DNA from: a virus
IMG/VR virus record: IMGVR_UViG_3300028837_001486
Location: 1 to 57,928 of that record
Strand: one strand, 5' to 3'
Length of the DNA stretch: 57,928 nucleotides
Under the pieces are notes generated by a model. That model had not been told where the DNA came from and did not search any database. It saw nothing but the letters and a program-made list of their open reading frames with translations. Positions 35,169-53,207 of the stretch are shown here, piece by piece (the stretch's first letter is position 1; each line of letters starts with the position of its first letter). The translations under genes were made by a program, and so were the position numbers.

Positions 35169-35177
35169 GAGGGAACG

Positions 35178-35573
35178 ATGGGGATACGTGAGTGGTTTCG
35201 GCGCAAGAAGGAACCCGAACCCACAACGGCTGTGGAGGAGCCGGTCGAGGAGCGTGCTCGCAGGTTTGACGGAACGCCTTCTCCAGCGCGTCCCACCGAG
35301 CCATTGCCCTTGGCGCTTGACTACATAGCGGACATGCTCAGCGACAAGAGGCTTGTGCCCAGCTATCTGCGGGGCGAGATGGCGATGGCACGCAGGCTGC
35401 CCGCAGAGGCTTGGGAAATGGCCCGAAAGCACGAGGATGAATGCCCGGTGGAGCTTATGGAGATTCGCAGTGCCGCCCTGGAGCACGCCAGGCGGGTGGC
35501 TGCTCTCTGTGACGAACGTAGCGAGGTAGGTCGTGGCCAAAGAATGGCGCGAAGTTCTAGCCAGACGTCGTAG
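35178..35573 (+). CDS. Hypothetical protein
   Basis: ATG follows GGAGGGAACG. Confidence 0.5.
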   Translation: MGIREWFRRKKEPEPTTAVEEPVEERARRFDGTPSPARPTEPLPLALDYIADMLSDKRLVPSYLRGEMAMARRLPAEAWEMARKHEDECPVELMEIRSAALEHARRVAALCDERSEVGRGQRMARSSSQTS

Positions 35574-36954
35574 AACGTCCAAGACGAAGCGGCTATACGA
35601 GGATGACCAGCCTGCCAACAAGTACAGCTGGGATGGGATGGTCGGCACGTCCGTTCACTATGAAGAGACGGAAGGCTCTGGCGATTGGCTGGAGGTTGAC
35701 CCACGCATAGTGCCCAGCGACGAGCCTGGCTGGGACTGGGAGATGCAAAAGGCATCTTGGCGCTTCCTGGGTAGGAATGAAGGCTGGTTTGCTGCCGAAA
35801 AGCAGGGCGTGGGCATCGGGTTCAAGTTGGGCTGGGTGGCCTATCTGAACATTGAGAGTAAAGAGTGGCAGATCATCCGCACGGCCAGCTACACCACGCC
35901 GACCGTGGATGTCATCGAACACGGCAACGACCTCTTGGCGAATCCGCTGGGCAAGCTCACCTGGACCAACTTATTCCCCGACACCACCTTCGAGATACAC
36001 ACGTCACCAGACAAGCTGCACGAGGAGATCAAAGTCGGCCAAACGGCTAGGGATGCCGTGCTGAGCCCGCCTTATCCGTATGCAGCAGAGGACACGGCTC
36101 TTGTCCTGGTCTACGAGGTGGACTGGGGGCAAGTCCCAGGGCTGGGCGACGACGGCGGCGACATAGACCCCGACGCCGACTTTGAGCGGCAGGCCAGGCT
36201 ATATCTCAAGAATCACCAGGGGGAGATAATCACTGCGCTGCCAGCGAGCAGGGCGTGGCCCGAAAGTGAACCTGTTGACGAGAACGGTGAGCCGATACAA
36301 GTTTCTCTGCGCAAGCGGTTCGTCAAGAAGGGCGGTCAGCACTATTTGCTCGTGGGCGCGCCAGTTCTTGCCCTCAATGCTCTGCCAGAAGGCACAATCA
36401 TCTTTGACCCTGACGTGGATGTGCAGGTAGCGGCGGACTTAGATGATACATACGCGAGCGCAATAACCAATTACAACGCTGCTCTGTATGTTTATCTGGG
36501 CGGATGGGCGAATAATGTGGGTCTTCGCTTTATTGGTGTAAATATCCCACAAGGAAGCATAATAAGCGTAGCATACATACAAGTACATGTATTTACTAAT
36601 GATGACCCTGATGGTAACTGGTATTGCCAAGATGGTACAGCGACGCCAGAAAACTTTGATGATGCAAATCCACTAGTTGGGGTTCGCAGTAGAACGACAA
36701 ACAAAACCGAATGGTCTGTTACTGGTATTGGGACAGGCTGGAAGCAAAGCCCATCTATCCTAGACCCTGTGCAAGAAGTTGCTACAGACCATGGTATAAC
36801 TGACTTAGGAATTTTGGGAATATATGCAAGTGGCGATAAACTATATTTTCGGTCACATGAATATGACGACACCTACGGGGCCAAGCTCCACATCGAGTAC
36901 ACGGCGGGGGCGGCGGGGGGGAACCCGTGGCACTACTATGCTCAACAGCAATGA
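35533..36954 (+). CDS. Structural (tail/receptor-binding candidate) protein with a low-GC C-terminal segment
   Basis: 473-aa ORF. The stretch at about 36440-36880 is visibly AT-rich compared with its flanks. Confidence 0.5.
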   Translation: MAKEWREVLARRRRTSKTKRLYEDDQPANKYSWDGMVGTSVHYEETEGSGDWLEVDPRIVPSDEPGWDWEMQKASWRFLGRNEGWFAAEKQGVGIGFKLGWVAYLNIESKEWQIIRTASYTTPTVDVIEHGNDLLANPLGKLTWTNLFPDTTFEIHTSPDKLHEEIKVGQTARDAVLSPPYPYAAEDTALVLVYEVDWGQVPGLGDDGGDIDPDADFERQARLYLKNHQGEIITALPASRAWPESEPVDENGEPIQVSLRKRFVKKGGQHYLLVGAPVLALNALPEGTIIFDPDVDVQVAADLDDTYASAITNYNAALYVYLGGWANNVGLRFIGVNIPQGSIISVAYIQVHVFTNDDPDGNWYCQDGTATPENFDDANPLVGVRSRTTNKTEWSVTGIGTGWKQSPSILDPVQEVATDHGITDLGILGIYASGDKLYFRSHEYDDTYGAKLHIEYTAGAAGGNPWHYYAQQQ

Positions 36955-36962
36955 GGTGAACG

Positions 36963-38270
36963 ATGGCTGATATTTGGATGGACGTAGATGCAGCACTGGC
37001 CGAAGTACCGGTGAACATCATGCCCCTACTCGACGATACGGACTTCAAGAGCAGGGAGGTTGCCATCACCTACGACCAGGCGGGCATGGACCTGGTATGG
37101 AACTTTGTCACCACAGCGGGGGCGACCACCCAGACCGCCGTTACCCCAACGACGGGCGGGGACTATGACTGGGCGCATCAAGGCGATGCGATGTACACGA
37201 TAGAAATACCAGCCAGCGGTGGCGCATCAATCAACAACGACACTGAGGGCTTTGGGTGGTTCACTGGCTTTGCCACGGGGGTACTTCCTTGGCGCGGGCC
37301 GGTGATTGGTTTTCGGGCTTCTGGACTCAACGACCTCTTGATTGATTCGGCGTACTCCGCGACACGCGGCCTTGGTGGAACCGCGCTTCCTGACGCGGCG
37401 GCAGATGCAGCAGGCGGATTGCCGATCAGCGACGCTGGCGGGCTTGACCTGGACACGCAGATCGCCACGGACATAGATGCTATCCTTGCGGACACGAACG
37501 AGCTTCAGGCGGACGATACGCCTGGCGCAATCGCCGCGCTGAACGACCCAACAGCCGCTGCGATAGCCGATGCTGTGTGGGATGAGGCTTCTGCTGGGCA
37601 CACTGGCGCGGGCAAGGCGGGTGAGCAGCTTTGGACCGACCTGGATGCCGTTCTCGCTGATACTAACGAACTCCAGGCGGATGACACCCCCGCTGCAATC
37701 GCTGCACTGAACGATCCAACTGCCGCCGCTATCGCCGATGCCGTTTGGGATGAGGACGTAGTAGCAGCCCATAACGGGGCCGACAGTGCTGGGGCTTTGA
37801 TTGATGACATAGGGACAAAGGCTGACTTCAAGGCGGACGTGGCTGCGCTTGCCACAGCAGCAGCAGTTGCCGTCGCCCAAGCCGATCTTGATAACCCAAA
37901 CCAGTACAAAGCGAATGTGGCTGGATTGGCTACAGCGGCAGCAGTTGCCGCCGCACAGGCTGACCTGGATAACCCGAACCAGTACAAGGCCACGGGGTTC
38001 AGCACCTTGAGTGCGGCGCAGATCAACACCGAAGTCGTGGATGGCCTGAACGGCGATACCTACGCTGAGCCAGGACAGGGAGACCCCTCAGCGATAGCGA
38101 GTATTGCAGCCATGATCTCCTATCTCTACAAGCTGGCCCGAAACAAAGTGACGCAGACCGCCACGGAATTGAATCTCTACAACAACGCTGGTGACACGGT
38201 GGATCAGAAGGCCGCTGTCAGCGACGATGGGACGACCTATACCAGGGGCAAGATTGGGAGCGGCCCGTAA
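36963..38270 (+). CDS. Fibre-like protein with internal duplications
   Basis: Ala-rich. Two copies of ILADTNELQADDTP.AIAALNDPTAAAIADAVWDE and two copies of A.LATAAAVA.AQADLDNPNQYKA. Confidence 0.55.
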   Translation: MADIWMDVDAALAEVPVNIMPLLDDTDFKSREVAITYDQAGMDLVWNFVTTAGATTQTAVTPTTGGDYDWAHQGDAMYTIEIPASGGASINNDTEGFGWFTGFATGVLPWRGPVIGFRASGLNDLLIDSAYSATRGLGGTALPDAAADAAGGLPISDAGGLDLDTQIATDIDAILADTNELQADDTPGAIAALNDPTAAAIADAVWDEASAGHTGAGKAGEQLWTDLDAVLADTNELQADDTPAAIAALNDPTAAAIADAVWDEDVVAAHNGADSAGALIDDIGTKADFKADVAALATAAAVAVAQADLDNPNQYKANVAGLATAAAVAAAQADLDNPNQYKATGFSTLSAAQINTEVVDGLNGDTYAEPGQGDPSAIASIAAMISYLYKLARNKVTQTATELNLYNNAGDTVDQKAAVSDDGTTYTRGKIGSGP

Positions 38271-38485
38271 TGGCGAACCTAGACAGTAGAAGCAAGCGGG
38301 CGTCCTCGGTCAGCATTTTGGTTCCGTTCGTGCTTGCACCGCCGCTGCCAGACGGGACAATATCCCAGGCAGACAGACAGCACATCGCCTGGTGCTTTAG
38401 CGGGATTATGGCGGCGGGGGCAGCCGCAGTAGTGGGCCTGCGCAGCAAACATGGAGTAATTGGTGCTTCAATCATACAGACATAG
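38270..38485 (+). CDS. Hypothetical small protein
   Basis: TAATG overlap start. Confidence 0.4.
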   Translation: MANLDSRSKRASSVSILVPFVLAPPLPDGTISQADRQHIAWCFSGIMAAGAAAVVGLRSKHGVIGASIIQT

Positions 38486-39536: not shown

Positions 39537-40466
39537 ATGGCAGTCACATTGGCAGAATCAGCGAAGCTCTCCCAGAACCTGCTCCACCGGGGCGTGGTCG
39601 AGGAGATGCTGAAGGTCAGCCCGATATTGCAGAGAGTCCCCTTCATCGACATCGTGGGGAACGCTCTGCAGATCCCAAGGGAAGACCCGCTGAATATGGG
39701 GAATGTTGGATTTGTTGCGACTGGTGGAGTGATCGTGGGTAGCGAGGCCAAGTTCACCAACCCGACCTACAACTTGTACGAGTTGATCGGGCAGGCGGAC
39801 GTACCCGGATTGATCCAGCAGACACGCTCGAACGTCATAGACCAGATGGCGGCTCAAGTGAAAATCAAGAGCAAGCTGATGGCCTATGAGTGGGAAGACA
39901 GGGCAATCTACGGTCAGCACCTCGTAGATGCTGGCTTCGACGGCTGGCATGTAATGACGGTTGCTGGCCAGATGCTTCACGCTGGGGCAGGAGTGGGCGG
40001 CGGCGTGTTGACCGAAAGATTGATGGATCAGCTCTTCGATCTCATCAAGGGTGGCCCCCCAAGCTGCATCGTGATGAACCTCAACATCAGGCGGCGCTTC
40101 TCTCAGTACCTGCGCCCCCTGGGGTCCTACCGCACAGAGCGGGACGACTACGGGAACTACTTTGGAGTCTGGAACGAGACGCCGGTTATCGCAACCGAGC
40201 ACCTGTTGCAGACGGAGACCATCCTGGGAGGGGCGTACAATCTTCCCACGACTGGGGTCTGTAGCTCCATCTTTGCCATTCGCTGGGGCGAGGGCGACGG
40301 GGTCTGCGGCATCCAGAACGGTGGTATCCAAACGGAGATCTTTGACAAGCTGGAGCAGTTCAACGCATCCCGCACGCGGCTCTTGTGGTACACGGGCCAG
40401 GCGCTATACAGCACCCTGGCGCTGGCCAGGATCGACGGCGTGCTGGATGGGATAATGACTGCGTAG
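39537..40466 (+). CDS. Major capsid protein (HK97-fold type, called by eye)
   Basis: 309 aa following the scaffold gene. The pattern ...VSPILQRVPFIDIVGNALQIPRED...LYELIGQADVPGLIQQ...AIYG is typical of HK97-like coat proteins. Confidence 0.65.
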   Translation: MAVTLAESAKLSQNLLHRGVVEEMLKVSPILQRVPFIDIVGNALQIPREDPLNMGNVGFVATGGVIVGSEAKFTNPTYNLYELIGQADVPGLIQQTRSNVIDQMAAQVKIKSKLMAYEWEDRAIYGQHLVDAGFDGWHVMTVAGQMLHAGAGVGGGVLTERLMDQLFDLIKGGPPSCIVMNLNIRRRFSQYLRPLGSYRTERDDYGNYFGVWNETPVIATEHLLQTETILGGAYNLPTTGVCSSIFAIRWGEGDGVCGIQNGGIQTEIFDKLEQFNASRTRLLWYTGQALYSTLALARIDGVLDGIMTA

Positions 40467-40538
40467 GCTTGGCCCTCCGAGGAGGGCCATAGAGGGGCGG
40501 GCTAGGCTCGCCCTGAGACACAGAAGGAGTAAAGCGAA

Positions 40539-41456
40539 ATGGCTTTCACAGATACAGCCCTCCGCAAGGTCCTTCAGGGCTGGGGGCTTGACCATGTTTT
40601 GTTGGGCGAAGCTGTCGCAGTTGGCGACCCCGTTGGAGTCAATGCAACCAACGAATGGATGCTGGCCTCGGCAGGTGCGACGCCCCACTACTTGGCGCGG
40701 TACGTGGCTGCTGAAGGTGGCGCAGCGGGGGACACCGTCGCGGTGTTTCGTATGGCCATTCTTGAGGGTGCGTTCGGCGCCACTCTCGCCGACTATGGGG
40801 ACCCGCTCTACCTGGCGGATACGGCTGGGAACTATACCGCCGCCGCAGGTACGGTTCGCCAGAACGTTGGATGGGTCAACGATGCCACTCACATCCTAGT
40901 AGAGCTACGAAGCCCGCTGGCCCTCGACGCCTCCGACATCGGGGACGACTCGATTGACTCCCAGCACTATGCTGCGGATTCAATCGACACCGAGCACTAT
41001 GCACCAGGGTCGGTAGACGGAACAGCTATCGCTGCTGATGCGGTCACCTCGACGCACTTGCTGGCTGGAGGCGTGGATACCACGGCGATCGCGACGAACG
41101 TGTATGGGATCGTCTGTGTAACCATCCAGACGGGTTCGAGTGACACGGTCCCTGTGACCGAGGACGCCTACGCACCCGTTGCTGGCGATGTCGTCGCCGT
41201 GCAGTTTATGAACTCGAGTTCCGGGACCATGTCGGCGGCGGCCGGGCTGACTGTTGGCAGCTACCAGACTGCCTGTGCGGAGTCAGGGGCTACCATGATA
41301 GCTGGCGCGGTGTTCCGCGACACGACCATGAACAGCTCGTGCGTGGCGCACGCCGTAGGCGCTACCCTGCTCTTCACCTCAGGGGAAGTGCATACCGGGA
41401 CTGAACCACAGACCTGCATCGTCGAGATCAGGTATCAGATCAAGCTCGTTACCTGA
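40539..41456 (+). CDS. Capsid decoration-like protein (DUF2190-like N-terminus) with a repeat-bearing extension
   Basis: N-terminal GEAVAVGDPVGV...AAEGGAAGDTVAVFRMAILEG pattern, then DSIDSQHYAADSIDTEHYAPGSVDGTAIAADAVTSTHL repeats. Confidence 0.45.
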   Translation: MAFTDTALRKVLQGWGLDHVLLGEAVAVGDPVGVNATNEWMLASAGATPHYLARYVAAEGGAAGDTVAVFRMAILEGAFGATLADYGDPLYLADTAGNYTAAAGTVRQNVGWVNDATHILVELRSPLALDASDIGDDSIDSQHYAADSIDTEHYAPGSVDGTAIAADAVTSTHLLAGGVDTTAIATNVYGIVCVTIQTGSSDTVPVTEDAYAPVAGDVVAVQFMNSSSGTMSAAAGLTVGSYQTACAESGATMIAGAVFRDTTMNSSCVAHAVGATLLFTSGEVHTGTEPQTCIVEIRYQIKLVT

Positions 41457-41464
41457 GCATGAAA

Positions 41465-41490
41465 GGAGAGGGGACTGAGAGCCCCTCTCC
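41465..41490 (+). terminator. Hairpin ggagagggg-N8-cccctctcc after the capsid genes (weak U-tract)
   Basis: 9-bp stem read directly. The downstream sequence is tcaactaagg. Confidence 0.4.
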
Positions 41491-41510
41491 TCAACTAAGG
41501 GGGGAGAGAA

Positions 41511-44500
41511 ATGACGCTGCCAGGAAAGGCGGCACTAGAACGCAAGGGTGAGTTGCTATGTCTGCGTGCCACTTTGGGCAAGCAAGAGGTGGACATCAGG
41601 ATAACACTCTTGTCTGTGTTGGAAAGCATCTCGGGTCTATTCCCTGAGTATCAACTGCAATGGGAGAAGGCGGAGCAGAGACCAAGACCGACACTATCCG
41701 TTGCCATGATCGTCAAGAACGAAGAGAAGTTCTTGGCTCAATGTCTGGACAGCATCAAGGAGATTGCAAATGAGATAGTCGTCGTGGACACAGGGTCTAC
41801 CGACAAGACCGTGGAGATAGCCTGGAGATACACGTCGCAGGTGTACTCGCACCCCTGGGAGGATAGTTTCAGCAAGGCGCGAAACCAATCCTTGTCCTAC
41901 TGCACTGGCGACTGGATTCTTCAGATAGATGCGGACGAAGAGCTGACGCCAGACAGCATACGGGTCATCCGCGAAGACTTCCCTCGAATAGCAAGCGATC
42001 CTGCGGTGGGGGCAATCTCGGTATCCATCCTCAACGAGTCCAAGACCGGAGGTATCTCACGCAACTTTTACCCACGGCTCTTCTGCCGCGAGGGCAGCCA
42101 TTTCGAGGGCATAGTACACAATCAGATCAAGTGGCGCGGCAAAAAGCTTCCCCTGCCTAGCGTGAAGATTCTGCATCACGGCTACAACCTCTCGCCCGAA
42201 GAGATGGAGCGAAAGCGCAAACGCTCAGAAGCTTTACTAGAGAAGCAGATAGAGGCCGACCCAGAGAACTGGTTTGCCTGGCGATGCCTGATACACAGCC
42301 GCCGCAATGACCACGACTGGGCTTATGTGATTGCCAATGCTGGGCGTGTGCTGGATACCCCTGGTGTTGACAAGGCAAACGTGCAGACCGTGAGCCTAGA
42401 CCTGGCGATAGCTCTACAGATGACCAAGCAGTATGAACAGAGCATAGCGGTTTCGCTGAAAACACTGAGCAGCTATCCCGAGAACGCAGACATAGTGTGG
42501 CATCTGTCCGGGACTTACGGGCTGAATGGTCAGAGAAAAGAAGCCATCAAGCAGATGAAGCGCTTCTTGGCCATAAGAGAAGAGGAGAAGCTGCGAGGGC
42601 CAACGGTCACTGGCGTAGCTTGCGACAGCTACAGCTTGGAGTCCAGAGGCAGGGCGTTTCTGGCGAAGTGGGAGGCGGAGCTGGAGGGCAAGAAAGCCCC
42701 ACCGCCCACTCAAAGACCTAGTGCTCGCAGCATAAAGATTCTCTCCCATTGCGAGATGGAAAGAGGTCTGGCGGCACGCAAGCAGTGGGCAGACTACTGG
42801 ATCAAGCGCGAGCTAGAGCAGCAGTTCACAAGCCTTGGCCTACAGGTCGTAGAAGAGTCCCCCGACATAACGCTTCACCTGTTCGGAATCCCGCTGAGGA
42901 AGCTCCCTGAGAACACGCGCAACATCGTGTGGGTATACAGCCACCCCGACCTAGTAACCCCCGCAAACCTTCGCGGCTATGACAAGATATTCACCAAGTC
43001 GGAGGCCCACGCGAGCAAGCTCCGCGCAATGGGATATGAGAATGTGAGCGTCTTGGTGGGAGCGACTGGGCACACGCTCGTAGAGTGCGAAGAAATGTTC
43101 ATGGAGCGAGACATCGCTTTCGTGGGGAACGCGAGGCGGAATGGCCGGAAGATCATATCGGACATTGGCGACACGCCTTACAACCTGAAGGTATGGGGGC
43201 GAGGCTGGGAGAAGCTGCTACTCGCTAAGTATCGCGGTGGAAGATACTTCCCCAACGAGAAGCTCAACACCCTCTACGCCTCCTCGCGCATATCGGTCTG
43301 CGACCACCATGCGGACATGGCCAGAGAGGCGTTTATCTCGGTCAGGCTCCTCGACATTCTGGCAAGCGGCGGCTTTGCCATCTCGGACCAAAATGCAGCG
43401 ATCGAGGGAATATTCGGCGACACAGTACCCCAGTACAGGGATCCCGAGCATCTCAGGGAACTGCTTGAGCACTACATCAACGATCCTGATGCGCGGCGCG
43501 AGTTGGCGGAGCGGGGCAGGAAGATTGCTCTGAGATACACCTGGAACAAGGCTGCTCGGCAGCTTTTGGGGATGCGGCCCAGAGTCCTCTACGTTGATAC
43601 GCTGAACACGCCCCAAGCGGCGTCCAACGTTGCAGGGACTGACAAGGCTTACCGGAACGCTGCGACAGTGAGGGCCTTTGATTACAGGGCCCTGGCCCAA
43701 AAGCATGGGCAGGATGCCATGAATCAAATGCTGGTCAGCGCGGCGGAGAAGTTCCGCCCAGACCTCATTCACCTCGGCAAGTGTGAGTTGGTCAAGGGAA
43801 GCGCCATCAAGGCCATCAAGGAAAAGCTGGACACCACGGTAGTCCATTTCTACGGAGACTACCGCTCCGCCCCTCAGCCCTGGGTTGTGGACATAGGCAA
43901 GTACGCTGATCTCACCCTGTTCAACTCCAAAGACGAAAGAGTGAGGGGCATGTACCGGGAGGCCGGGGTAAGGAACCCATCGGGCTTCTGGTTCGTTGGC
44001 GCTGATCCTGACGTGTTCTATCCCAGAGATGTGGAGAAGACCTACGACGTTGCATTCATGGGAAGCAACTTGCAGGTGCGCAACCCTGGGTATCCGAAGC
44101 GACGAGAGCTGCTGCGGGCTATGCTAGGCGCGGGGCTGGACGTTCACATCTTTGGCAATGGCTGGGACTATCTGAAACCGCTCTACCTGAACGTCCACCT
44201 GCACCCGTTTGTCAATGGCGACGTGCTGGCGGAAGCCTACTCGCGGTCCAAAGTCACGCTGGGCATCAATGGTATCAACACCATCAAGATGTATGCCTCC
44301 TGGCGTCGCGCCTTCTGCTCAATGGCTAGTGGGGCGTTTCACCTGACCCACTACGTTCCTGGACTGGAGACTGTGTTCGAGAACGGCAAGCACCTGGTCT
44401 GGTTCAAGTCGGAGGCTGAGGCCCTAGAGCTAGTGCAATACTACCTCTCCCATGAGGATGAGCGAGGCAGAATCGCCGCCGCAGGGCGCAAGGAGGTCTT

Positions 44501-45089
44501 GGCGAATCACACCTGGGATGTGCGCATTGCCGCAATGCTAGAGCACATAGCCCCACGGAAGCCACGGCCTGAGACCAAGAAAGAGACTCCTCTGAAGCTG
44601 CACTTGGGATGTGGCTCGGTGCGCCTTGAGGGCTACGTGAACATCGACGTGGAGGACAGGGCCGGTGTCTGTGATCTGACAGCAGACGTGAGCGAACTCC
44701 CCATGTTTGAGACCGAGAGCGTGGAGCATATCTTCAATCACGCACTTCTGGAGCACCTGCCTCCGTGGGATACGATGAAAGCCCTCCGAGAATGGCACCG
44801 GGTCCTCAAGCCTGGGGGGACAATTCAGATCGAAGTGCCAGACCTAGAACGAGTGTTCCAAGAGTGGCTCATCGACAAGACTCTGCATGAGGAAGGGGCT
44901 CTGGCTTGCATCTATGGGGGCAACAAGAGTCCCGCCAGGTCAAGTTGCGAGCAGCATCACTTGACCGGCTTCACCTATGACCGACTGACGAGAATGATGG
45001 CCCAGTGTGGCTTCGAGAGATTCCGAAGACACGAGCATCCCAAGTTCCACCTCAATTTGGTTGTGCGCGCCCAAAAGGGGGCGCTATGA
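41511..45089 (+). CDS. 1192-aa multidomain enzyme: GT2 glycosyltransferase, TPR-like region, two CgeB-like (Glyco_trans_1_2) domains, and a class I SAM methyltransferase
   Basis: GT2: SVAMIVKNEEKFL...VVVDTGSTDKT...HPWEDSFSKARNQS...DWILQIDADEEL. CgeB-like: DIAFVGNARRNGR...SVRLLDILASGG...RYTWNK and YDVAFMGSN...HIFGNGW...ANHTWDVR. MT: LKLHLGCGSVRLEGYVNIDV...LEHLP...LKPGGTIQIEVPD. Confidence 0.8.
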   Translation: MTLPGKAALERKGELLCLRATLGKQEVDIRITLLSVLESISGLFPEYQLQWEKAEQRPRPTLSVAMIVKNEEKFLAQCLDSIKEIANEIVVVDTGSTDKTVEIAWRYTSQVYSHPWEDSFSKARNQSLSYCTGDWILQIDADEELTPDSIRVIREDFPRIASDPAVGAISVSILNESKTGGISRNFYPRLFCREGSHFEGIVHNQIKWRGKKLPLPSVKILHHGYNLSPEEMERKRKRSEALLEKQIEADPENWFAWRCLIHSRRNDHDWAYVIANAGRVLDTPGVDKANVQTVSLDLAIALQMTKQYEQSIAVSLKTLSSYPENADIVWHLSGTYGLNGQRKEAIKQMKRFLAIREEEKLRGPTVTGVACDSYSLESRGRAFLAKWEAELEGKKAPPPTQRPSARSIKILSHCEMERGLAARKQWADYWIKRELEQQFTSLGLQVVEESPDITLHLFGIPLRKLPENTRNIVWVYSHPDLVTPANLRGYDKIFTKSEAHASKLRAMGYENVSVLVGATGHTLVECEEMFMERDIAFVGNARRNGRKIISDIGDTPYNLKVWGRGWEKLLLAKYRGGRYFPNEKLNTLYASSRISVCDHHADMAREAFISVRLLDILASGGFAISDQNAAIEGIFGDTVPQYRDPEHLRELLEHYINDPDARRELAERGRKIALRYTWNKAARQLLGMRPRVLYVDTLNTPQAASNVAGTDKAYRNAATVRAFDYRALAQKHGQDAMNQMLVSAAEKFRPDLIHLGKCELVKGSAIKAIKEKLDTTVVHFYGDYRSAPQPWVVDIGKYADLTLFNSKDERVRGMYREAGVRNPSGFWFVGADPDVFYPRDVEKTYDVAFMGSNLQVRNPGYPKRRELLRAMLGAGLDVHIFGNGWDYLKPLYLNVHLHPFVNGDVLAEAYSRSKVTLGINGINTIKMYASWRRAFCSMASGAFHLTHYVPGLETVFENGKHLVWFKSEAEALELVQYYLSHEDERGRIAAAGRKEVLANHTWDVRIAAMLEHIAPRKPRPETKKETPLKLHLGCGSVRLEGYVNIDVEDRAGVCDLTADVSELPMFETESVEHIFNHALLEHLPPWDTMKALREWHRVLKPGGTIQIEVPDLERVFQEWLIDKTLHEEGALACIYGGNKSPARSSCEQHHLTGFTYDRLTRMMAQCGFERFRRHEHPKFHLNLVVRAQKGAL

Positions 45090-45565
45090 AACTGAACCTG
45101 GGTTGTGGTGGGCGACACCTGAAGGGCTACGTGAACATCGACAGGTATCACCCCGAGGCGGATCGGCGGATGGATGCAAGGCATCTGGATTACCCCGATG
45201 AGAGCGTAGACGAACTCTACTCGTCGCATCTGATTGAGCACATACCGGCGCCGGACTGCGACTCACTACTCAGAGAGTGGTACAGGGTCTTGAAGGCGGG
45301 CGGGTTGCTAGTGGTTCGCTGCCCCAACATAGCCACTCATATGCGACGGTGGCTGGAAGGGAGTGAGGAGTTCCGGCTGCCTGCGGTGAATAGCATCGTG
45401 GGAGCAGCGAGAGGGCCTGGCGACCTGCACCGAAACCTCTTTGACGTGAGGAGATTGCGCCTCCTAGTAGAAAGAGCAGGCTTCACTGTTCTGTCTTGTG
45501 AGGAACACCCATCACGCGATGGCAGGATCGCCACGGGCGATCTGCTATGCACGGCTGTTAGGTAA
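45086..45565 (+). CDS. Class I SAM-dependent methyltransferase (Methyltransf_11-like)
   Basis: MKLNLGCGGRHLKGYVNIDRY...SSHLIEHIP...LKAGGLLVVRCPN. Confidence 0.8.
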   Translation: MKLNLGCGGRHLKGYVNIDRYHPEADRRMDARHLDYPDESVDELYSSHLIEHIPAPDCDSLLREWYRVLKAGGLLVVRCPNIATHMRRWLEGSEEFRLPAVNSIVGAARGPGDLHRNLFDVRRLRLLVERAGFTVLSCEEHPSRDGRIATGDLLCTAVR

Positions 45566-45580
45566 GGGGGGAGAAAGACC

Positions 45581-46372
45581 ATGCAGCTTTCCATTGTAAC
45601 GCCAAGTCTCATAGACCGCACCAAGCGCAAGGAGCTGGCGCGGAGGTCTTTGGCTTCGCTCAGGGAAGCCACCAAGGATGCCTACCGCCATGTCATTGTG
45701 AGCGACATAGTACACCCGCGCTGGCTCAAGGCGAGTCGCGAGACATATGACCGACCTGGGGCCATTCACATTCTGCGCTCAGGGAAGAAGGGAAGTGCCG
45801 AGGCAACTCTGTGTGCGGTTCGGGAGACCCGCAGGCAGGGCGCAGACCTCGTGTTCATCCATCTGGACGACGATGTGTACGTGCCCGAGCTGGAGGCACT
45901 GCTGAAGCACAGCATCGACGCATTTGAGAAAGACGAGAAGCTGACACAGATTCGGCTAGTCGGCTATCCCGTCATCAACAGGAACTGCACGGCGGAGTTG
46001 GGGAACAGGACGCAGATAACCATAGAAGAAGAGGAAGTTTCCTTCCCTGGTGTTCGCCTTAGAGCGTCCCGAGAGGAGAACTATACGCTGTGGTGGGCAC
46101 GCTATGAGAGCGGGGTCTTTGCCAGTCGCTGTTGGCCGGTCGTCCTCTGGCTGACAGTATACCGAGCAGACTTCCTGGAAGCGCTACTGTCTGGAGCGAG
46201 GGAACAGGGGCTTGGTGGAGTCGAGCTCTTTTACAAGAACAAGGCCAATTGGCCCAAGGCATGGCTCTCCCAAAGATTGGGCTTTATCAACATGCAGTTT
46301 GGTGGACTTGAGATGCAACGCAACAAAGAGTGGAAAGAGACGATCAGGGTTCCCAACGCGGCGGTGAGGTGA
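45581..46372 (+). CDS. GT-A-fold glycosyltransferase-like protein
   Basis: N-terminal LSIVTPSL followed by VFIHLDDDVYV (DxD-like). This is a weaker call. Confidence 0.5.
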   Translation: MQLSIVTPSLIDRTKRKELARRSLASLREATKDAYRHVIVSDIVHPRWLKASRETYDRPGAIHILRSGKKGSAEATLCAVRETRRQGADLVFIHLDDDVYVPELEALLKHSIDAFEKDEKLTQIRLVGYPVINRNCTAELGNRTQITIEEEEVSFPGVRLRASREENYTLWWARYESGVFASRCWPVVLWLTVYRADFLEALLSGAREQGLGGVELFYKNKANWPKAWLSQRLGFINMQFGGLEMQRNKEWKETIRVPNAAVR

Positions 46373-46374
46373 GT

Positions 46375-47625
46375 ATGCCTGCAATTGCGCCCCAAATCCT
46401 ACAGATTGCCAGGGATGCTCAATGCAATGTCTTTGTGGAGTCAGGAACATTCCGGGGGCAGTCCTTCCGAAGAGCACTTGAGTCAGGCATATTCGAGCGT
46501 TGTTACACAGTTGAGATTGTGCCAAGACTCTACGAGAAAGTCGCTTCTCAGTATCCGACGCAAGCGAATCGTCAGGTCTTTCTGGGCAAGAGTCACGAGG
46601 TATTTCGGAGCCAAATCTTCCCGCTGTGCTCTCCAGACGATCGCATCTTCTTCTGGCTCGATGGGCACTTCAGCGGCGGGCACACAGGGGGCGCGGAGTC
46701 CCTGGCTCCCTTGCTGGATGAGCTGGAGGCCATTCGGCAATCCTGTCCCACTTCGTCCCTGGTCATTGCAATCGACGACAGCGATGATCTGGGGAAGAGG
46801 GACGAGGTGCCTGGCCATAATTGGCCTACCAGGGCCGAAGTGGTCACCGCTATAGACAAGATCAATCCCAACTTTGCCTGCGTAGACTACACGGGCAAGG
46901 GCGCTTTGCAGAAGGTATGCCGAGGCGTCCTGGTCTTCTCGTATCGGGCAGTACGGCAGAGCCAGCCCAGTTGGGCGAGATACCTTGAGGGCTTGGCGGA
47001 GTACAGGCGGCTGCCTGGCAGCGAAGCCAGAGTGGTGCTGCATCCCTGCCTTGATGAGAAGACAGCCAAGACACCCCTGGACAAGTTCTACTTCTATCAG
47101 GATACCTGGGCCTTTCGGCGAATCGTTGCGCACCAGCCAAGGCGCGTCGTCGATATAGGGTCTACTGCCCTTCTCGTGGGCGCCGTGTCATGCCTGTTCC
47201 CAACCGTCAGCATCGACGTGAGACCGCTTCCCGTATCGCTGCCAGGACTGACTTGCCTTGAGGGATCAATCACTGCGATCCCTCTCGGAGATAATTCGAT
47301 AGAGCTACTAAGCAGTCTCTGTGTGATAGAGCACATTGGCCTGGGTCGATACGGCGATCCGCTAGACCCCCTGGGGAGCATCAAAGCCGTTCGGGAGGTA
47401 GTACGTGTTGTGCAGCCTGGAGGCCACTTTCTGATGAGTGTGCCGGTGAGCCACAGCCCTGTCCTGTGCTTCAATGCTCATCGGATTTTCGCTAAGTCCC
47501 AAGTGTTGGAGTGGATGCCAGAGTTCTCGGTAGAGGACGAGGCGTTTCTGTTTCCAGAGCCTGGCCCAGAAGAGCGGGTGGGCAAGCAATTCTGTGTCTG
47601 GTGTGCCGATCTGGTGAGGAGGTAG
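46375..47625 (+). CDS. Two-domain methyltransferase-like protein (N-terminal MT-like domain plus C-terminal DUF268-like MT)
   Basis: N-terminal NVFVESGTFRGQS. C-terminal VVDIGS...IPLGDNSIELLSSLCVIEHIGLGRYGDPLDP...VQPGGHFLMSVP. Confidence 0.6.
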   Translation: MPAIAPQILQIARDAQCNVFVESGTFRGQSFRRALESGIFERCYTVEIVPRLYEKVASQYPTQANRQVFLGKSHEVFRSQIFPLCSPDDRIFFWLDGHFSGGHTGGAESLAPLLDELEAIRQSCPTSSLVIAIDDSDDLGKRDEVPGHNWPTRAEVVTAIDKINPNFACVDYTGKGALQKVCRGVLVFSYRAVRQSQPSWARYLEGLAEYRRLPGSEARVVLHPCLDEKTAKTPLDKFYFYQDTWAFRRIVAHQPRRVVDIGSTALLVGAVSCLFPTVSIDVRPLPVSLPGLTCLEGSITAIPLGDNSIELLSSLCVIEHIGLGRYGDPLDPLGSIKAVREVVRVVQPGGHFLMSVPVSHSPVLCFNAHRIFAKSQVLEWMPEFSVEDEAFLFPEPGPEERVGKQFCVWCADLVRR

Positions 47626-47629
47626 ATAG

Positions 47630-48256
47630 GTGTCCTATAGGGAGAATCCTGAGCTAGAGAACGACATGGTGGAGTCCCTCTTCCGTCGCTGGCGAAAGGG
47701 CAGGTTCCTTTTGGCCCGCCCCCAGCGGGACATCTACGAAGCCATTGCATCCAGGGTTGAGGGCAAATCGGTATGCGATGTTGGGTCTGGGTCGGGGCTA
47801 GGCACCGTGATTCTGGCCCAGAAAGCCCGCTCCGTTGTGGGGCTTGAGAAGCTGGCATCGTCTACCGAGTTTTCACAAAAGTGCTTCCCGCTGAACAATA
47901 TCCGCTTCGTCAACCAGGACATAACGACGTGTTCTTTGCAAGAGAGGAGCTTTGATGTCGTTACTGCCATTGAGATAATCGAGCACGTTGCGGCTTACCA
48001 GGCAGCCCTTATCCAGATGTGGCGCATTCTGAAGCCTGGGGGCACCCTCTACATCTCGTCGCCCAACAGGAACAACCCCCACATCCCAAACGATAGGCCA
48101 GGGAACAAGCATCACGTCCGCGAGTGGACAGCCGGGGAGTTCTACGACATCCTCTCTGGCTATTTTCGGGCCATTGAGCTTCGCGACTTTACTCTCACTC
48201 GGCCACAGGAGCGCGAGACACAGATTACCCCGCTGATTGCGGTGTGCAAGCGATGA
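47630..48256 (+). CDS. Class I SAM-dependent methyltransferase
   Basis: VCDVGSGSGLGTVILA...FDVVTAIEIIEHV...LKPGGTLYISSPN. GTG start lies 8 nt after AGGAGG. Confidence 0.8.
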   Translation: MSYRENPELENDMVESLFRRWRKGRFLLARPQRDIYEAIASRVEGKSVCDVGSGSGLGTVILAQKARSVVGLEKLASSTEFSQKCFPLNNIRFVNQDITTCSLQERSFDVVTAIEIIEHVAAYQAALIQMWRILKPGGTLYISSPNRNNPHIPNDRPGNKHHVREWTAGEFYDILSGYFRAIELRDFTLTRPQERETQITPLIAVCKR

Positions 48257-48266
48257 GGAGCAGGCG

Positions 48267-49331
48267 ATGAACCTAACTCTGAGTATGTTGCGAGAGGCTG
48301 TTGGCAACGACCTTGCTGAGTTTTACGAGGGCACCATCACCGCTCCGGCGGCAACGACGTTCATAGATGCAGACCTCGTGGATTCTGCCGAGTCTGACGA
48401 GCAGTACGTGGGAGCATGGGTCATGGTGACCGAATCAGGAAGCCCGGCTGAGGGCGTGGTTCGGCGCATAAGTGCGTATGACCCAGCGACGGGGCAGATA
48501 ACCATCTCGCGCGCCTGGGCTCCTGCCCCAGCCCCCGGGGACGAGTATGAGCTGCACACGCTCCTATCGCCGGATGACCTGGAGCAATGTATCGCTGTCG
48601 GGATGGGCAAGTGCATGTATGTTGACCGTTGGATCGTAGATGCTGTGGCCGACCAACGCGAGTACATCCTGTCACCTCCTAGCATAGGGGCTTACAACTG
48701 GATAGAGCAAGCAGCCGCAGTGCGCAACGTCTACTGGTGCCCTGGGGCCGTGCATGTGTCTGACACCAGCATCGCGTTCGCAGCCACCGACCCAGGAACG
48801 ATCACCGACGCCAACAACAACTTTGAGAGATTCGCGACTGGCGATGTCATTGTGGTCAGGGGCTCGGCAGAGAACGACGGCACATACACTGTGAGCACTG
48901 GTGGGGTTGCGGGAACAATTCGGACCAGAGAAGCGACCCTAGTGGAAGCCGCCGCCGCAACAGTTACCATCCTCGCAACAGGCGCAATCCAATACCGGCC
49001 ACTAAGGCGGTGGAGGGTGACGGAGAACGCCGGGGTCTTCTCCCTGCACGTTCGGCCCTACGGCACAGATGGCGTGTACGTGGTGGAGATTCTGCGACGC
49101 TATGCCACGCTGAACGGTGACGAAACGACCTCCTGCCCCGTTTTCTGGGCCGTTGCGGCAGCGGAGGTAGAGGTCTACCGCTTGCTGGCGAGAAAAGACC
49201 CCGGCCAGGACAGCACGCGATTCAAGCAGGCACAGGCTGAGGCAGCGGCGAGGTTTGCGACCTTGACGAGGCGCTACCAGCCGAGGCCAAAGATAAGAAT
49301 ACACACGTCCGACTCAGCTTGGGCGGTCTGA
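48267..49331 (+). CDS. Hypothetical virion structural protein
   Basis: Assigned by position in the structural module. No motif recognised. Confidence 0.45.
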   Translation: MNLTLSMLREAVGNDLAEFYEGTITAPAATTFIDADLVDSAESDEQYVGAWVMVTESGSPAEGVVRRISAYDPATGQITISRAWAPAPAPGDEYELHTLLSPDDLEQCIAVGMGKCMYVDRWIVDAVADQREYILSPPSIGAYNWIEQAAAVRNVYWCPGAVHVSDTSIAFAATDPGTITDANNNFERFATGDVIVVRGSAENDGTYTVSTGGVAGTIRTREATLVEAAAATVTILATGAIQYRPLRRWRVTENAGVFSLHVRPYGTDGVYVVEILRRYATLNGDETTSCPVFWAVAAAEVEVYRLLARKDPGQDSTRFKQAQAEAAARFATLTRRYQPRPKIRIHTSDSAWAV

Positions 49332-49332
49332 T

Positions 49333-51288
49333 ATGCCAAGAGTTCCGAGCGCGTATGACATAACCATAACCCAGGGGCCCACGACCAGGGGCTATCTCCT
49401 GGCGCGTCAAGGCTCCTTGGGGCGCGGCGCAAGGAGATGGAGCGTCGAGGCCGTGGCAGCCTCTATCGCCCAGCGGACACCCGCCGAGGCCCAATATGGC
49501 AACCAGGCGGCCATCATCGAGTTGCCGATGGTCTTCCGCTCGACCCACAAGGGCTACGGCGATGCGCGCGTGGTAGCCGACGATCGCTACCACTACTCGG
49601 TGAGCGTAGATGGGCGATTCCCCCATCAAGTCATAGCTGGGCCTGCGGTGAATCCATTTCAGACCTACATGGGCGCAAACTGCGTGGGCTTCTTCGAGCA
49701 GGACGGGATGTTGTTCGCCATTGGGGGCCGGCACTGTGTCTCCATAGAGACAGACGGAACTGTTGGCGTTGCACAGGACTTTGGCGCTGGCAAGGTGGCT
49801 ACAGACTGTGGCGTGTTTGGCTGGGGTGCCCCGGCAGCCGCTTACGGCTATGTTGGCATGGGCTACGCCGAGCCGTTCTGGGAAAGGGCAGCGAACGCCA
49901 ACCCAGCGCTGGGCTGGACGCAGGCAGCAGCACTTTACATGGGGCAGATCAGCGTCTTCAAGGATAGGCTGTGGGCCTCCACAACAGCTCACGAAGTGCA
50001 GCCTGTAGCAACCGCGCCCAAGACGGCAACCAACTGGGGGGCCCGCTACGGGATAGGCGACCCGGGGAAGAGCATAACGGAGCTCGCCGAGCTTGCTGAC
50101 CTGCTCTACGTCGGCAAGACCAACGGGCTGTTTGCGCTGGACTCCAGCGGCCTGGGCCAGATGGCTACGCCAGAATTGGGTCGCGCGGTAGCGGCCGCGA
50201 ACTGTGTTCAGATGGGGGCTTGGCACGGAAGTATGTGGGTTCCACACGAGCGCGGCTTGTTCAACTACCGATCAATGGGAGCGCAAGGCTTCTTGGTGAC
50301 GCCTGCGACGCCAGGTGCCTTTGCGGTAGAGGACAACCCAATCAAGGGCAAGATAACGGCACTCGTTGGAGATGACCGCTGGCTCTACGTGGCACTCTAC
50401 ACAGCGGGAGCAGACACGTACATTCTCGCGGGCCGCCAGTCAATGGGTGATGAGCAGGCGTTCGGCCCGATGATATGGCACCCCCTCGCTCACCTAGCAA
50501 GCATGAAAGTCGAGGCGATGCACATATCGGGCTTGTGGGGCAACCCCCGCCTCTTTTTCGCATACGGTGCCAACGATATGGCCTACATCATCCTGCCGAG
50601 GAAGGGTGAGAACCCCATCTCCGACACAGCCTACAGGTATGCGACGAGTGGTAGCATCTACTACCCAGCGCATTGCAGCCTATCCCCCACTACGACGAAA
50701 ATCTACAAGAGCATCCAGATAGGGGGGAGTAAACTCACTGCCACTCGGTATGCAGACGTCTACTACCGCATCGACGAGGGGCCCTGGCTCTTGGCGGGGA
50801 GGGCCAACCGCTCGCCACGGGACATCGTGATCTTGCCGGCGGCAGGGGTGTCTGGCCTAGAGATGGAGATACGCTTGGACCTGACCCTGCCTGACGCGAC
50901 GGAGACACCCAGAATCTATAGCGTTGTGGTGAGATGTGTCGAGCGCCCACCAAGCATCAAGGTCTTCACCGTGGCAGTCAGGTGCGCTGACGGCATGATG
51001 CGCAACAACAACACGCGTGAGCGGAGAACGGGCGCCGAGATACTCCTGGAGCTTGAGGGCCTCGCCCAGCTCGATGAGGCGGTCCTCTTGAGAGACACGA
51101 TCGGTATCGAGCGGTGGGTATTGATCTTGCCGCCCATCGGGGAAGTGGAGACCGTACAAAGAGACAGCCAGATTCCCGAGAAGGTTGCAATGGTCAAAAT
51201 GGTACTGTTTGAGGCTGAGGCGCGACCAGGGATTGGCGGCGGGTTCATCATTGGATCATTGGTCGGCGGTACAGACGTAATCATATAG
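49333..51288 (+). CDS. Hypothetical large structural protein (beta-rich; tail or hub candidate)
   Basis: 651-aa ORF adjacent to the fibre gene. No motif recognised. Confidence 0.45.
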   Translation: MPRVPSAYDITITQGPTTRGYLLARQGSLGRGARRWSVEAVAASIAQRTPAEAQYGNQAAIIELPMVFRSTHKGYGDARVVADDRYHYSVSVDGRFPHQVIAGPAVNPFQTYMGANCVGFFEQDGMLFAIGGRHCVSIETDGTVGVAQDFGAGKVATDCGVFGWGAPAAAYGYVGMGYAEPFWERAANANPALGWTQAAALYMGQISVFKDRLWASTTAHEVQPVATAPKTATNWGARYGIGDPGKSITELAELADLLYVGKTNGLFALDSSGLGQMATPELGRAVAAANCVQMGAWHGSMWVPHERGLFNYRSMGAQGFLVTPATPGAFAVEDNPIKGKITALVGDDRWLYVALYTAGADTYILAGRQSMGDEQAFGPMIWHPLAHLASMKVEAMHISGLWGNPRLFFAYGANDMAYIILPRKGENPISDTAYRYATSGSIYYPAHCSLSPTTTKIYKSIQIGGSKLTATRYADVYYRIDEGPWLLAGRANRSPRDIVILPAAGVSGLEMEIRLDLTLPDATETPRIYSVVVRCVERPPSIKVFTVAVRCADGMMRNNNTRERRTGAEILLELEGLAQLDEAVLLRDTIGIERWVLILPPIGEVETVQRDSQIPEKVAMVKMVLFEAEARPGIGGGFIIGSLVGGTDVII

Positions 51289-51296
51289 GAGGCGCT

Positions 51297-53207
51297 ATGG
51301 CTTTCGTAAGACCAAGTACCGGAGATACGTTCACCCAGGCTTTGGCACAGCAGATCATCAAGGCTCTGGAGGGTGATGCGGGATTCGGTCAGGCGATAAA
51401 TCTGACCAAGCTCAACGACGCGGGGAGCTACGCACTCACAGTACAGAACCTCGATGCCGTCAACCAGTATGCCTTGAACGCTCTCAACGCCGCTGGCGGT
51501 GTGGTCTTTCAGGTGGCGGGAGGCGCGGCCTACTTTGGCGTATCGCCGACTTTCGGCGCTGGCGCGGGGATAGGCCACGCGGGCTTGGCCGATGATGCCG
51601 TAGAGGACAACAACATCTTGGACGGGGAAGTAACATTGGCGAAGTTGCCAGACGGCGTGTTCACCGCCAACGTCGCTGGTCGCGCAAAGCTGGCCAATGG
51701 CTTCGTGAATGCGGCAAAGGTGGCTGCTGACGTGGCTACGCAGGCCGAGCTCGACGCCCACGCGGCATTGACTGCTGCTGGGACTCACGGGAGCACAACT
51801 GCGGCAACTGCCGACAAGCTCGTTCACCGAGATGCTGCCGGGCGCGCGAAGGTGGCAGCCCCTGGTGCGGCCACAGACATCGCGCTCAAGAGCACTGTCA
51901 CGGCAGACATAGCGACGCACCAGGCGCTCACATCCCCCCACAGCGCAGTCAGTGCCGCTACAGCTCTCAGGCTGATCGTCCGAGATGCTGCCGGGCGCGC
52001 GAAGGTGGCAGCCCCTGGTGCGGCCACAGACATCGCGCTCAAGAGCACTGTCACGGCAGACATAGCGACGCACGCCGCACTTACTTCACCCCACAGCGCG
52101 ACGGCCAATCCAACGGCCAGCAGGTTGATCGTCCGTGATGGGGTTGGTCGCGCGGCGGTGGCAGCCCCTGCTGCTGCCGACGATATTGCCCGGAAGGATA
52201 CCGTTGACGCGGTGCAGACCAACCTCAATACGCACGCGGCACTGACTGCTGCTGGGACTCATGGGAGCACAACTGCGGCGACGGCGAACAAGCTCGTTCA
52301 CCGAGATGCCGCTGGGCGTGCGAAGGTTGTGGCTCCTGCCGTGGCTGGTGACATCGCGCTGAAGAGCACGGTTACAGCAGACATAGCGACCCACGCAGCC
52401 CTGACGGCCGCTGGCACACATGGCAGCACGGTCGCGGCAACTGCCGACAAGCTCGTTCACCGAGATGCCGCTGGGCGTGCCAAGGTTGTGGCTCCTGCCG
52501 TGGCTGGTGACATCGCGCTGAAGAGCACGGTTACAGCAGACATAGCGACGCACGCCGCACTTACTTCACCCCACAGCGCGACGGCCAATCCAACGGCCAG
52601 CAGGTTGATCGTCCGTGATGGGGTTGGTCGCGCGGCGGTGGCAGCCCCTGCTGCTGCCGACGACATAGCACGCAAGGATACCGTTGACGCGGTGCAGACC
52701 AACCTCAATACGCACGCAGCACTGACGGCGGGTGCTGCTCACGCGAACAGAACCCGAGTGTTCTTCATCCAAGCAAGTGGCTCATGTCCCGACGGTGGTG
52801 GTGATCAACTAGCTTGCGATGAGTATGGGATCATCCTACCTAACATGGGAACTCATCAGGTTGACGGATATGGAATCATCCCGAATGATTTTGTCCCGGG
52901 GGGAACCCTCGATATGCGCCCGATCTTCTTCCCGCGGGGAGCAAGCGGCGATATTAGAATCCACGGGACGTTTGGGGCTAATGACTGCGACAACAACTTT
53001 ACAGTGAACTTTCTGGGTCCCGCCACGCAAGCACTCGTGGTCAATCAAATCAAATGTGCGAGCAATCTGGGGATTTCTGGCGGGCATGTCGCTGCCGGCA
53101 ATTTCATCAGACTGCTTATCGAACGCCAGGGCGATCATGCAGACGACGATTTTGCGGGTGTTTGCCACTTTTGTGGTTGGCGACTTTCATACACGGCGGA
53201 CTCCTAG
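51297..53207 (+). CDS. Tail fibre protein with many tandem repeat units
   Basis: Recurrent ...HAALTAAGTHGSTTAATADKLVHRDAAGRAKVAAP.AA.DIALKSTVTADIATH... units. Near-identical DNA repeats lie within the gene. Confidence 0.7.
   Translation: MAFVRPSTGDTFTQALAQQIIKALEGDAGFGQAINLTKLNDAGSYALTVQNLDAVNQYALNALNAAGGVVFQVAGGAAYFGVSPTFGAGAGIGHAGLADDAVEDNNILDGEVTLAKLPDGVFTANVAGRAKLANGFVNAAKVAADVATQAELDAHAALTAAGTHGSTTAATADKLVHRDAAGRAKVAAPGAATDIALKSTVTADIATHQALTSPHSAVSAATALRLIVRDAAGRAKVAAPGAATDIALKSTVTADIATHAALTSPHSATANPTASRLIVRDGVGRAAVAAPAAADDIARKDTVDAVQTNLNTHAALTAAGTHGSTTAATANKLVHRDAAGRAKVVAPAVAGDIALKSTVTADIATHAALTAAGTHGSTVAATADKLVHRDAAGRAKVVAPAVAGDIALKSTVTADIATHAALTSPHSATANPTASRLIVRDGVGRAAVAAPAAADDIARKDTVDAVQTNLNTHAALTAGAAHANRTRVFFIQASGSCPDGGGDQLACDEYGIILPNMGTHQVDGYGIIPNDFVPGGTLDMRPIFFPRGASGDIRIHGTFGANDCDNNFTVNFLGPATQALVVNQIKCASNLGISGGHVAAGNFIRLLIERQGDHADDDFAGVCHFCGWRLSYTADS

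Follow-up and report, generated by a model that had tools for sequence, protein, structure and literature searches.

The phage contig IMGVR_UViG_3300028837_001486 of IMG/VR, analysed here over its full 57,928 nucleotides (the window), carries a block of enzyme genes within its structural module. Between positions 41511 and 48256 five genes follow one another with intergenic gaps of -4 to +15 nt, and profiles or structure models recognise four glycosyltransferase (GT) and five methyltransferase (MT) domains in their products (Table 1). Capsid and head-fibre genes lie upstream of the block and syntenic conserved genes downstream. This position and this domain count had been put forward in a preliminary description made from the bare sequence, and both stand: hidden Markov model classification of each domain returned family matches, with structure models needed for the 263-amino-acid (aa) enzyme and for the N-terminal half of the 416-aa protein. 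Together, the matches to Pfam, to Protein Data Bank (PDB) profiles and of the structure models indicate that all of these domains are real. Also in line with that description, hydropathy finds no membrane segment in any of the five proteins, and no Wzx (flippase), Wzy or Gtr gene was found among the genes scanned. One stretch of the 416-aa protein resembled a membrane segment, but the sole hydropathy peak is the S-adenosylmethionine (SAM)-binding motif I, VVDIGS, and the segment was rejected. The codon-position GC content of the block resembles that of the rest of the genome (0.678 versus 0.671 at the third position), a comparison that gives no compositional sign of recent transfer.

Table 1. 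Coordinates of the enzyme block, its domains and the neighbouring phage genes in the window
Feature	Position	Strand	Assignment or remark
Terminase large subunit	16611-18161		
Major capsid protein	39537-40466	+	phrog_212, 1e-39
Head-decoration/fibre-like protein	40539-41456	+	Weak tail-fibre PHROG matches on repeat region
Spacer with GC-rich hairpin	41457-41510		Upstream of enzyme block; sequence AGAGGGGACTGAGAGCCCCTCT
1192-aa protein	41511-45089	+	GT2, TPR-like linker, GT-B, GT-B, MT (Pfam)
GT2 (GT-A fold) domain	41676-42272	+	aa 56-254 of 1192-aa protein
TPR-like helical linker	42273-42731	+	aa 255-407
First Glyco_trans_1_2 (CgeB-type, GT-B) domain	42732-43580	+	aa 408-690
Second Glyco_trans_1_2 domain	43581-44570	+	aa 691-1020; best PF13524 stretch aa 864-1011
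C-terminal class I SAM MT domain	44592-45089	+	aa 1028-1192; Methyltransf_11 and Methyltransf_25
159-aa class I SAM MT	45086-45565	+	Methyltransf_11, 7e-11; Methyltransf_23
263-aa GT-A-fold GT	45581-46372	+	Small uncharacterised family
416-aa protein	46375-47625	+	
N-terminal half of 416-aa protein	46375-46974	+	Class I MT fold, no Pfam model
C-terminal half of 416-aa protein	47002-47625	+	DUF268, 5e-12; Methyltransf_11
208-aa class I SAM MT	47630-48256	+	Methyltransf_11, 4e-17
First conserved gene past the block	48267-49331	+	Presumed virion protein, by synteny
Two conserved module genes	49333-53207	+	651-aa and 636-aa proteins

The first gene of the block encodes a 1192-aa protein in which a family 2 GT (GT2) domain, a linker resembling tetratricopeptide repeats (TPR), two GT-B domains and an MT domain are fused. 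No full-length counterpart of this five-domain fusion was found among 5.8 billion proteins, where coverage reaches 64% at most. The GT2 domain (PF00535, 3e-23, aa 63-195) has GmaR as its strongest match among PDB sequences (3e-31, aa 56-248), followed by SunS (6e-22) and 7msk (9e-17), while the best match to a polysaccharide, non-protein GT reaches only 9e-6. Its DxD motif, IDADE (DAD at aa 141-143), aligns with the IDADE of GmaR. The domain also matches TIGR04195, the SunS family, at 6e-25 (87.9 bits, below the cut-off of 350), and phrog_13126, the SPbeta YolJ family, at 6e-26; a match to a GtrB-like PHROG (2.7e-4) reflects nothing beyond generic GT2 similarity. These profile matches place the domain in the protein/peptide glycosyltransferase clade of GmaR and SunS and make it the proposed initiating enzyme of the block. 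With GmaR and SunS as its nearest relatives, the argument for a protein acceptor gains strength over that of the preliminary description.

The remainder of the fusion is related to different enzymes. The linker matches TPR families at E ~0.015 and the TPR of MamA at 4.5e-5, and its homologues are rich in TPRs; the TPR-like repeats noted earlier in this protein are therefore weak as direct matches and better seen in the relatives. By analogy with GmaR and FlmG, the linker may serve as the acceptor-recognition element. The CgeB-type region matches PF13524 in two stretches at 1e-53 (181.2 bits against a gathering cut-off of 25), and its first domain is 45-57% identical to TPR-plus-double-GT proteins; a sequence search found no relative of solved structure for either domain. 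The likeness to Bacillus CgeB from which the preliminary description had argued holds at the level of the Pfam family and goes no closer, the near relatives not being spore proteins. The C-terminal MT domain is 61% identical to stand-alone MTs at two other loci (L016 and L045).

The four smaller genes complete the set. The start of the 159-aa MT gene overlaps the stop of the 1192-aa gene (ATGA). The 263-aa protein is borderline in Pfam GT2 (23.0 bits versus a cut-off of 23.3), but its AlphaFold model (predicted local distance difference test, pLDDT, 97) has only GT-A enzymes as top Foldseek matches (GnT-I, TarS, POMGnT1 and SpsA), and its family profile finds SpsA at 2.5e-3. Residues D96-D97, a DxD motif, are invariant in this family, which is small, with 60 cluster representatives in a set of 1.84 billion proteins, and has no counterpart in PHROGs. 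In Pfam the 416-aa protein is unmatched over its N-terminal half even at E<=5, and as a whole it has no PHROG match; homologues of this half are stand-alone proteins of ~196 aa without Pfam domains. Its family profile matches class I MTs in PDB, and its model (pLDDT 91) matches the Hen1, COMT and TrmR methyltransferases in Foldseek. This family, recognisable by an ESGT...FWLDGH signature, has relatives at 29-38% identity in 310 IMG/VR viral stretches (loci L047-L125), including giant-virus metagenome-assembled genomes (MAGs), and is frequent in contigs of phages and giant viruses. Among its viral structure matches, proteins of Solumvirus, Iridovirus LCIVAC01 and Harvfovirus rank highest, and the invariant residues are E22, G24, T25, E47, D96, H98, D134 and D135. 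The analysis ties both this family and that of the 263-aa GT-A enzyme, neither of which has a solid annotation, to glycan pathways.

The phage itself is a complete genome that has not been described before. An exact terminal overlap of 103 bp (positions 1-103 and 57826-57928) identifies the whole contig as a complete circular assembly of ~57.8 kb, with a GC content of ~0.59 and all major genes on the plus strand. No DNA similarity to isolated phages was found, and the capsid protein is ~34% identical to annotated capsid proteins of isolates, none of which is closer. No integrase was found among the open reading frames (ORFs) scanned in the circular genome, and the phage is probably virulent.

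Comparison with related phages reveals the block as an accessory insertion, placed at one fixed junction within the structural operon. The relatives were recognised by their capsid protein (L002/L003, 64% identical; L005, 59%) or, in L004, by homologues (74-75% identical) of the 364-aa and 651-aa proteins encoded downstream of the block. In L002, L004 and L005 the homologue of the 48267-49331 gene comes immediately after the head-fibre gene, with no GT or MT genes between them, and is succeeded by the homologue of the 49333-51288 gene, in L004 after an extra stretch of ~630 bp. The synteny survey proposed in the preliminary description thus finds the flanking genes conserved and the block absent from the site in three relatives. 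On its upstream side, the head-fibre protein is conserved over its N-terminal ~185 aa and has a lineage-specific C-terminal part of ~120 aa: it is 55% identical to the L002 homologue over aa 1-185 only, and the distal domain differs among relatives. The 49333-51288 product (651 aa) is 53-75% identical in relatives, and the 636-aa product of 51297-53207 has tail-fibre-like repeats and matches tail-fibre and minor-tail PHROGs.

The gene that follows the block most likely starts at ATG 48267 in place of TTG 48237. Its product has an insertion of ~90 aa (aa ~170-250) relative to the L002 and L005 homologues, which is also present in the closest relative, L004, despite the lack of a GT/MT cluster at that site. 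GC-rich hairpins stand immediately 3' of the capsid gene (40467-40538, GGCCCTCCGAGGAGGGCC) and of the head-fibre gene (41457-41510), the latter also picked up by a terminator scan on the minus strand. These hairpins could reduce read-through into the enzyme genes; the promoter and terminator scan gave no signal above background level.

Where might such a set of enzymes come from? Twelve bacterial contexts were examined, eight around relatives of the CgeB-type part and four around GT2-TPR relatives selected solely for their long contigs. Flagellar genes lie within 10 kb in seven of them (P0002, P0123, P0124, P0133, P0008, P0097 and P0005), two are polysaccharide or lipopolysaccharide (LPS)-type loci (P0127 and P0038) and three are other glycan islands (P0047, P0126 and P0125). 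By module, half of the CgeB-part relatives (4/8) sit in flagellar clusters, and three of the four GT2-TPR relatives directly adjoin flagellin-FliD-FliS-FlaG. The closest homologue spanning the whole CgeB-pair-plus-MT region, P0002 (45% identity, 809 aa), and its near-twin P0123 are both downstream of FlgK-FlgL-FliW-CsrA, and P0133 is downstream of MotAB. P0124 lies between flagellin and FliD-FliS, in an island that also has a GT2-TPR gene and hence both gene types, together with a giant GT-MT-carbamoyltransferase, DegT genes and an acetyltransferase. The P0002 locus (L001) further encodes a TPR-GT protein whose DUF268 end is 43% identical to the DUF268 half of the 416-aa protein. P0002 and P0121-P0126 combine TPR with PF13524, and the close relatives of the CgeB-type part come from Desulfobacterota, Zixibacteria, Omnitrophota and others. 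A universal flagellar linkage of the CgeB-type module was considered and rejected, since flagellar genes appear in 2 of 25 reference-genome loci and one close relative occupies a Wzx/Wzy locus. Relatives in both kinds of locus indicate that the elongation module serves flagellin glycans and polysaccharides alike; it is the initiating GT2-TPR module that, by its sequence relationships, points to a protein acceptor.

The cassette recurs in a second phage lineage. A 91-kb viral contig, L037, has homologues of every part of it except the GT2-TPR module, all as separate genes: the 159-aa MT (65% identical), the 263-aa GT-A enzyme (53%), the 208-aa MT (54%), both CgeB-type domains, and the two halves of the 416-aa protein as two genes (72% and 64%). 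Their island, at least 13 kb long, stands right behind the terminase, portal and a 502-aa gene in the head module. It also contains other GT2 enzymes, a GT47-like enzyme, a Methyltransf_24 protein and two DegT aminotransferases. An 86-kb contig, L127, is related to L037 (terminase 71% and portal 66% identical) and has a variant island at the same position. Over both contigs the identities to the cassette range from 46 to 72%; the 208-aa MT is 54-57% identical to its two homologues there, and the second CgeB-type domain is 58-60% identical to those of L037 and a further locus, L009. In the stretches compared, L037 and L127 share no other genes with the phage of the window, and no virion protein common to the cassette-bearing phages, of the kind that would mark an acceptor, was found. 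CgeB-pair-plus-MT sets are also carried by L038, L043 and L039-L042. In both L037 (420-2985) and L127 (11-2324) the terminase large subunit is split into two ORFs that correspond to the N- and C-terminal halves of phrog_38, and small ORFs between the halves suggest an intervening mobile element.

The reading favoured here is that the block is a mobile line for soluble protein O-glycosylation, derived from islands for flagellin glycosylation and directed at a virion protein, a reading with about an even chance of being right. A fuller version, in which tailed phages outside the actinobacteriophages captured this flagellin-type line, which moves between unrelated phages and coats the head fibre or capsid with a heavily O-methylated glycan, is more tentative and falls somewhat short of even. 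The preliminary description had already suggested a methylated glycan on virion proteins; that idea, with a virion protein as putative acceptor, gains from the GmaR/SunS clade, the flagellin-island relatives and the recurrence in a head module. In the proposed scheme the cassette, inserted in the late structural operon, would be co-expressed with virion proteins. The GmaR/SunS-like GT2 domain, aided by the TPR-like linker, would draw a first sugar from the host nucleotide-sugar pool and link it, within the cytoplasm, to Ser/Thr (possibly Cys) on one of the phage proteins. Chain extension would fall to the CgeB-type GT-B pair of the fusion and to the 263-aa GT-A enzyme encoded separately, and the five MT domains would O-methylate the sugars, leaving a particle coated with methylated glycan. 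The order of action, the donor sugars, the acceptor and the O-methylation of sugars rather than of protein are presumptive elements of this scheme. The acceptor is most likely an exposed virion protein, the first candidate being the head fibre (40539-41456) through its variable distal domain, the second the capsid protein and the third a tail fibre. The preliminary description had pointed to NSS sequons in the head-fibre protein, an argument that does not apply because profile searches detected no enzyme family of an N-glycosylating type. Enzymes of the GmaR/SunS type form O- or S-linkages.

Several observations weigh against the favoured reading, in which the acceptors are putative. A distinctive Ser/Thr-rich tail is missing from the capsid protein, as is any additional C-terminal extension relative to L002 and L005 (59-64% identity), and the genes 3' of the block belong to no recognised family: the 354/364-aa and 651-aa downstream proteins, like the 502-aa protein of L037, match nothing in Pfam, PHROGs, NCBIfam or an INPHARED tblastn search, and only synteny assigns them a virion role. 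Absence of the block from the same site in three relatives implies that it is dispensable for particle building. Among the bacterial relatives, P0127, no more distant than the flagellar ones, is a TPR-less CgeB-pair (48% identity) beside Wzy_C and Wzx genes (L045), with a neighbouring MT that is 61% identical to the phage C-terminal MT domain, and the GT2-TPR relative P0038 is in an LPS-like locus (YfhO/GT9/GT4). In the reference-genome scan, flagellar seed searches detected flagellar genes in just the 2 of 25 loci mentioned, these loci being mostly from Desulfobacterota, Zixibacteria and Omnitrophota MAGs. Could the shared cassette serve different acceptors in different phages? L037 encodes a 609-aa protein (7241-9070) with two GT2 domains, whose nearest relatives of solved structure are synthases of chondroitin and heparosan, and its island may make a repeating polymer; with this dual GT2 and no GmaR-like initiator, such a difference in acceptors is conceivable.

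The relatives in the Wzx/Wzy and YfhO/GT9/GT4 loci, and the absence of flagellar genes from most genome-scan loci, would fit enzymes that alter a polysaccharide of the host envelope (LPS, capsule or exopolysaccharide) by way of lipid-linked intermediates on the cytoplasmic side, so as to mask receptors or exclude other phages, which is how the literature usually reads phage GT sets. Peripheral GTs require no membrane segment. The earlier step from missing membrane segments to a cytoplasmic substrate leaves room for action on lipid-linked glycans, given the relative in a Wzx/Wzy locus. Remodelling of the envelope is nevertheless unlikely, given that the genes scanned in the complete genome include no initiating phosphoglycosyl transferase, flippase, polymerase or Gtr-type membrane protein, that no integrase was found and the block lies within a late structural operon, and that the GT2 domain is nearest to protein-directed enzymes. 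The homology to GmaR and the flagellin-adjacent relatives of both modules would suit a cassette that retains its ancestral target, host flagellin or another host protein, and so alters motility or blocks the flagellum-dependent adsorption of competitors. This is quite doubtful: in a phage without recognisable lysogeny genes, placement in the late operon means that newly made flagella would hardly have time to take effect, the second phage lineage also has the cassette in its head module, and the TPR-like linker is short and diverged.

Modification of phage DNA and of a glycocin-type peptide are both unlikely, and each appears very improbable. Phage GTs and MTs are well known from DNA hypermodification, in which bases would be glycosylated and methylated. 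Against this, the window ORFs scanned (all but a few small ones) include nothing like a base hydroxymethylase or a TET/JBP-type oxygenase, Pfam and NCBIfam assign none of the MTs to a DNA methyltransferase family, and the families involved (GmaR/SunS-like GT2, TPR, CgeB-type and DUF268) and their bacterial contexts relate to glycans and proteins. The SunS family and phrog_13126 matches, together with a match to SPbeta yolJ, recall the glycosylation of a small secreted peptide by SunS in that prophage, but the SunS score is far under the equivalog cut-off, the block is too tightly packed to hold a precursor-peptide gene or an ABC exporter, and four GT and five MT domains far exceed the needs of a single-sugar glycocin.

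Elsewhere in the genome, RecT, SbcCD, a DnaB-like helicase and several homing endonucleases are recognisable. Genes of the homing-endonuclease type lie at 4071-4655, 7565-8401 (phrog_314; GC 0.483, markedly below the genome) and 20759-21505 (HNH), and two of them have relatives in the otherwise unrelated viral loci L005, L038 and L043. A single tRNA-Thr (TGT) at 8638-8712 falls within the listed ORF 8385-8741, which is therefore probably no gene, and a 245-aa ORF among the replication genes (10222-10959) has an IS110-family Transposase_20 domain (4e-5). A giant ORF of 2380 aa (27436-34578) has no Pfam match; over the final ~150 aa it shows 37% identity to the C-terminal end of a 2949-aa ORF located directly upstream of the scaffold and capsid genes in L002, and its product may be an internal or ejection protein. 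Between this ORF and the scaffold gene, genes are inserted at 34737-38485, comprising four sizeable ORFs without matches and one unscanned 71-aa ORF.

If the favoured reading of virion glycosylation is correct, environmental phages would have acquired particle glycosylation independently, through capture of flagellin-glycosylation enzymes, and the trait would spread between unrelated phages as a mobile module. The glycans could be unusually elaborate and methyl-rich, and the 1192-aa polypeptide would be a candidate compact initiator-elongator-capping enzyme for cytoplasmic protein glycoengineering.

Among known systems, GmaR, the flagellin O-GlcNAc transferase of Listeria monocytogenes, has a GT followed by TPRs and transfers GlcNAc to flagellin, which the TPR region is proposed to recognise. 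The phage protein shares the DxD motif and, to the extent that its weakly TPR-like linker counts as TPR, the domain order, and GmaR is the best solved-structure match of its GT2 domain. The phage protein differs in lacking the antirepressor domain, in its much shorter TPR region and in its fusion to further GT and MT domains, and no flagellar genes are present in the window. SunS (YolJ) family enzymes, glycocin S-glycosyltransferases such as that for sublancin in prophage SPbeta, are likewise phage-borne, with a homologous GT2 followed by a helical region, but the phage protein scores below the family cut-off, the block has no precursor peptide or exporter and it has many more transferase domains. 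FlmG-type flagellin GTs are soluble cytoplasmic TPR-plus-GT-B enzymes whose TPR was shown to bind the flagellin acceptor, and the phage protein resembles them by architecture, being soluble with a TPR-like linker N-terminal to two PF13524 domains. Flagellin-glycosylation islands contain the nearest relatives of the CgeB-type part, TPR-plus-GT-B proteins within flagellar clusters, next to DUF268, Methyltransf_11, DegT and carbamoyltransferase genes; unlike them, the phage block has no nucleotide-sugar synthesis genes or flagellar neighbours, and some relatives are non-flagellar. With CgeB itself, the Bacillus spore maturation protein and type member of PF13524, both GT-B domains share a strong family match, a family-level likeness only, as their close relatives are TPR-GT proteins of flagellar or glycan islands.

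Virus-encoded virion glycosylation offers two further comparisons. In chlorovirus PBCV-1 the glycan of the capsid protein has its terminal part assembled and methylated in the cytoplasm by A064R (GT-GT-MT) together with a separate methyltransferase, A061L. The phage block is alike in architecture, a virus-encoded multi-domain transferase plus separate MTs, whereas PBCV-1 is a eukaryotic virus and its glycan is N-linked. The other comparison is with the mycobacteriophages, a few of which have documented virion glycosylation by phage genes that alters antibody recognition; examples are Che8 and the cluster O (Corndog-type) phages, the latter with an O-methyltransferase and three tandem GTs, and the GT and O-MT genes reportedly modify subunits of the capsid and tail tube. 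Both systems have phage-encoded soluble GTs with O-MTs, and in both the gene content varies among related phages. The present block differs in its nine catalytic domains, its five-domain fusion and its proposed flagellin-type origin, and in its phage lineage, the capsid protein being ~34% identical at best to that of any isolate. A tblastn search of 50,697 phage records with the 1192-aa protein found 22 records, no Mycobacterium phage among them, and the block may represent a putative kind of phage virion glycosylation that is non-homologous to the mycobacteriophage systems.

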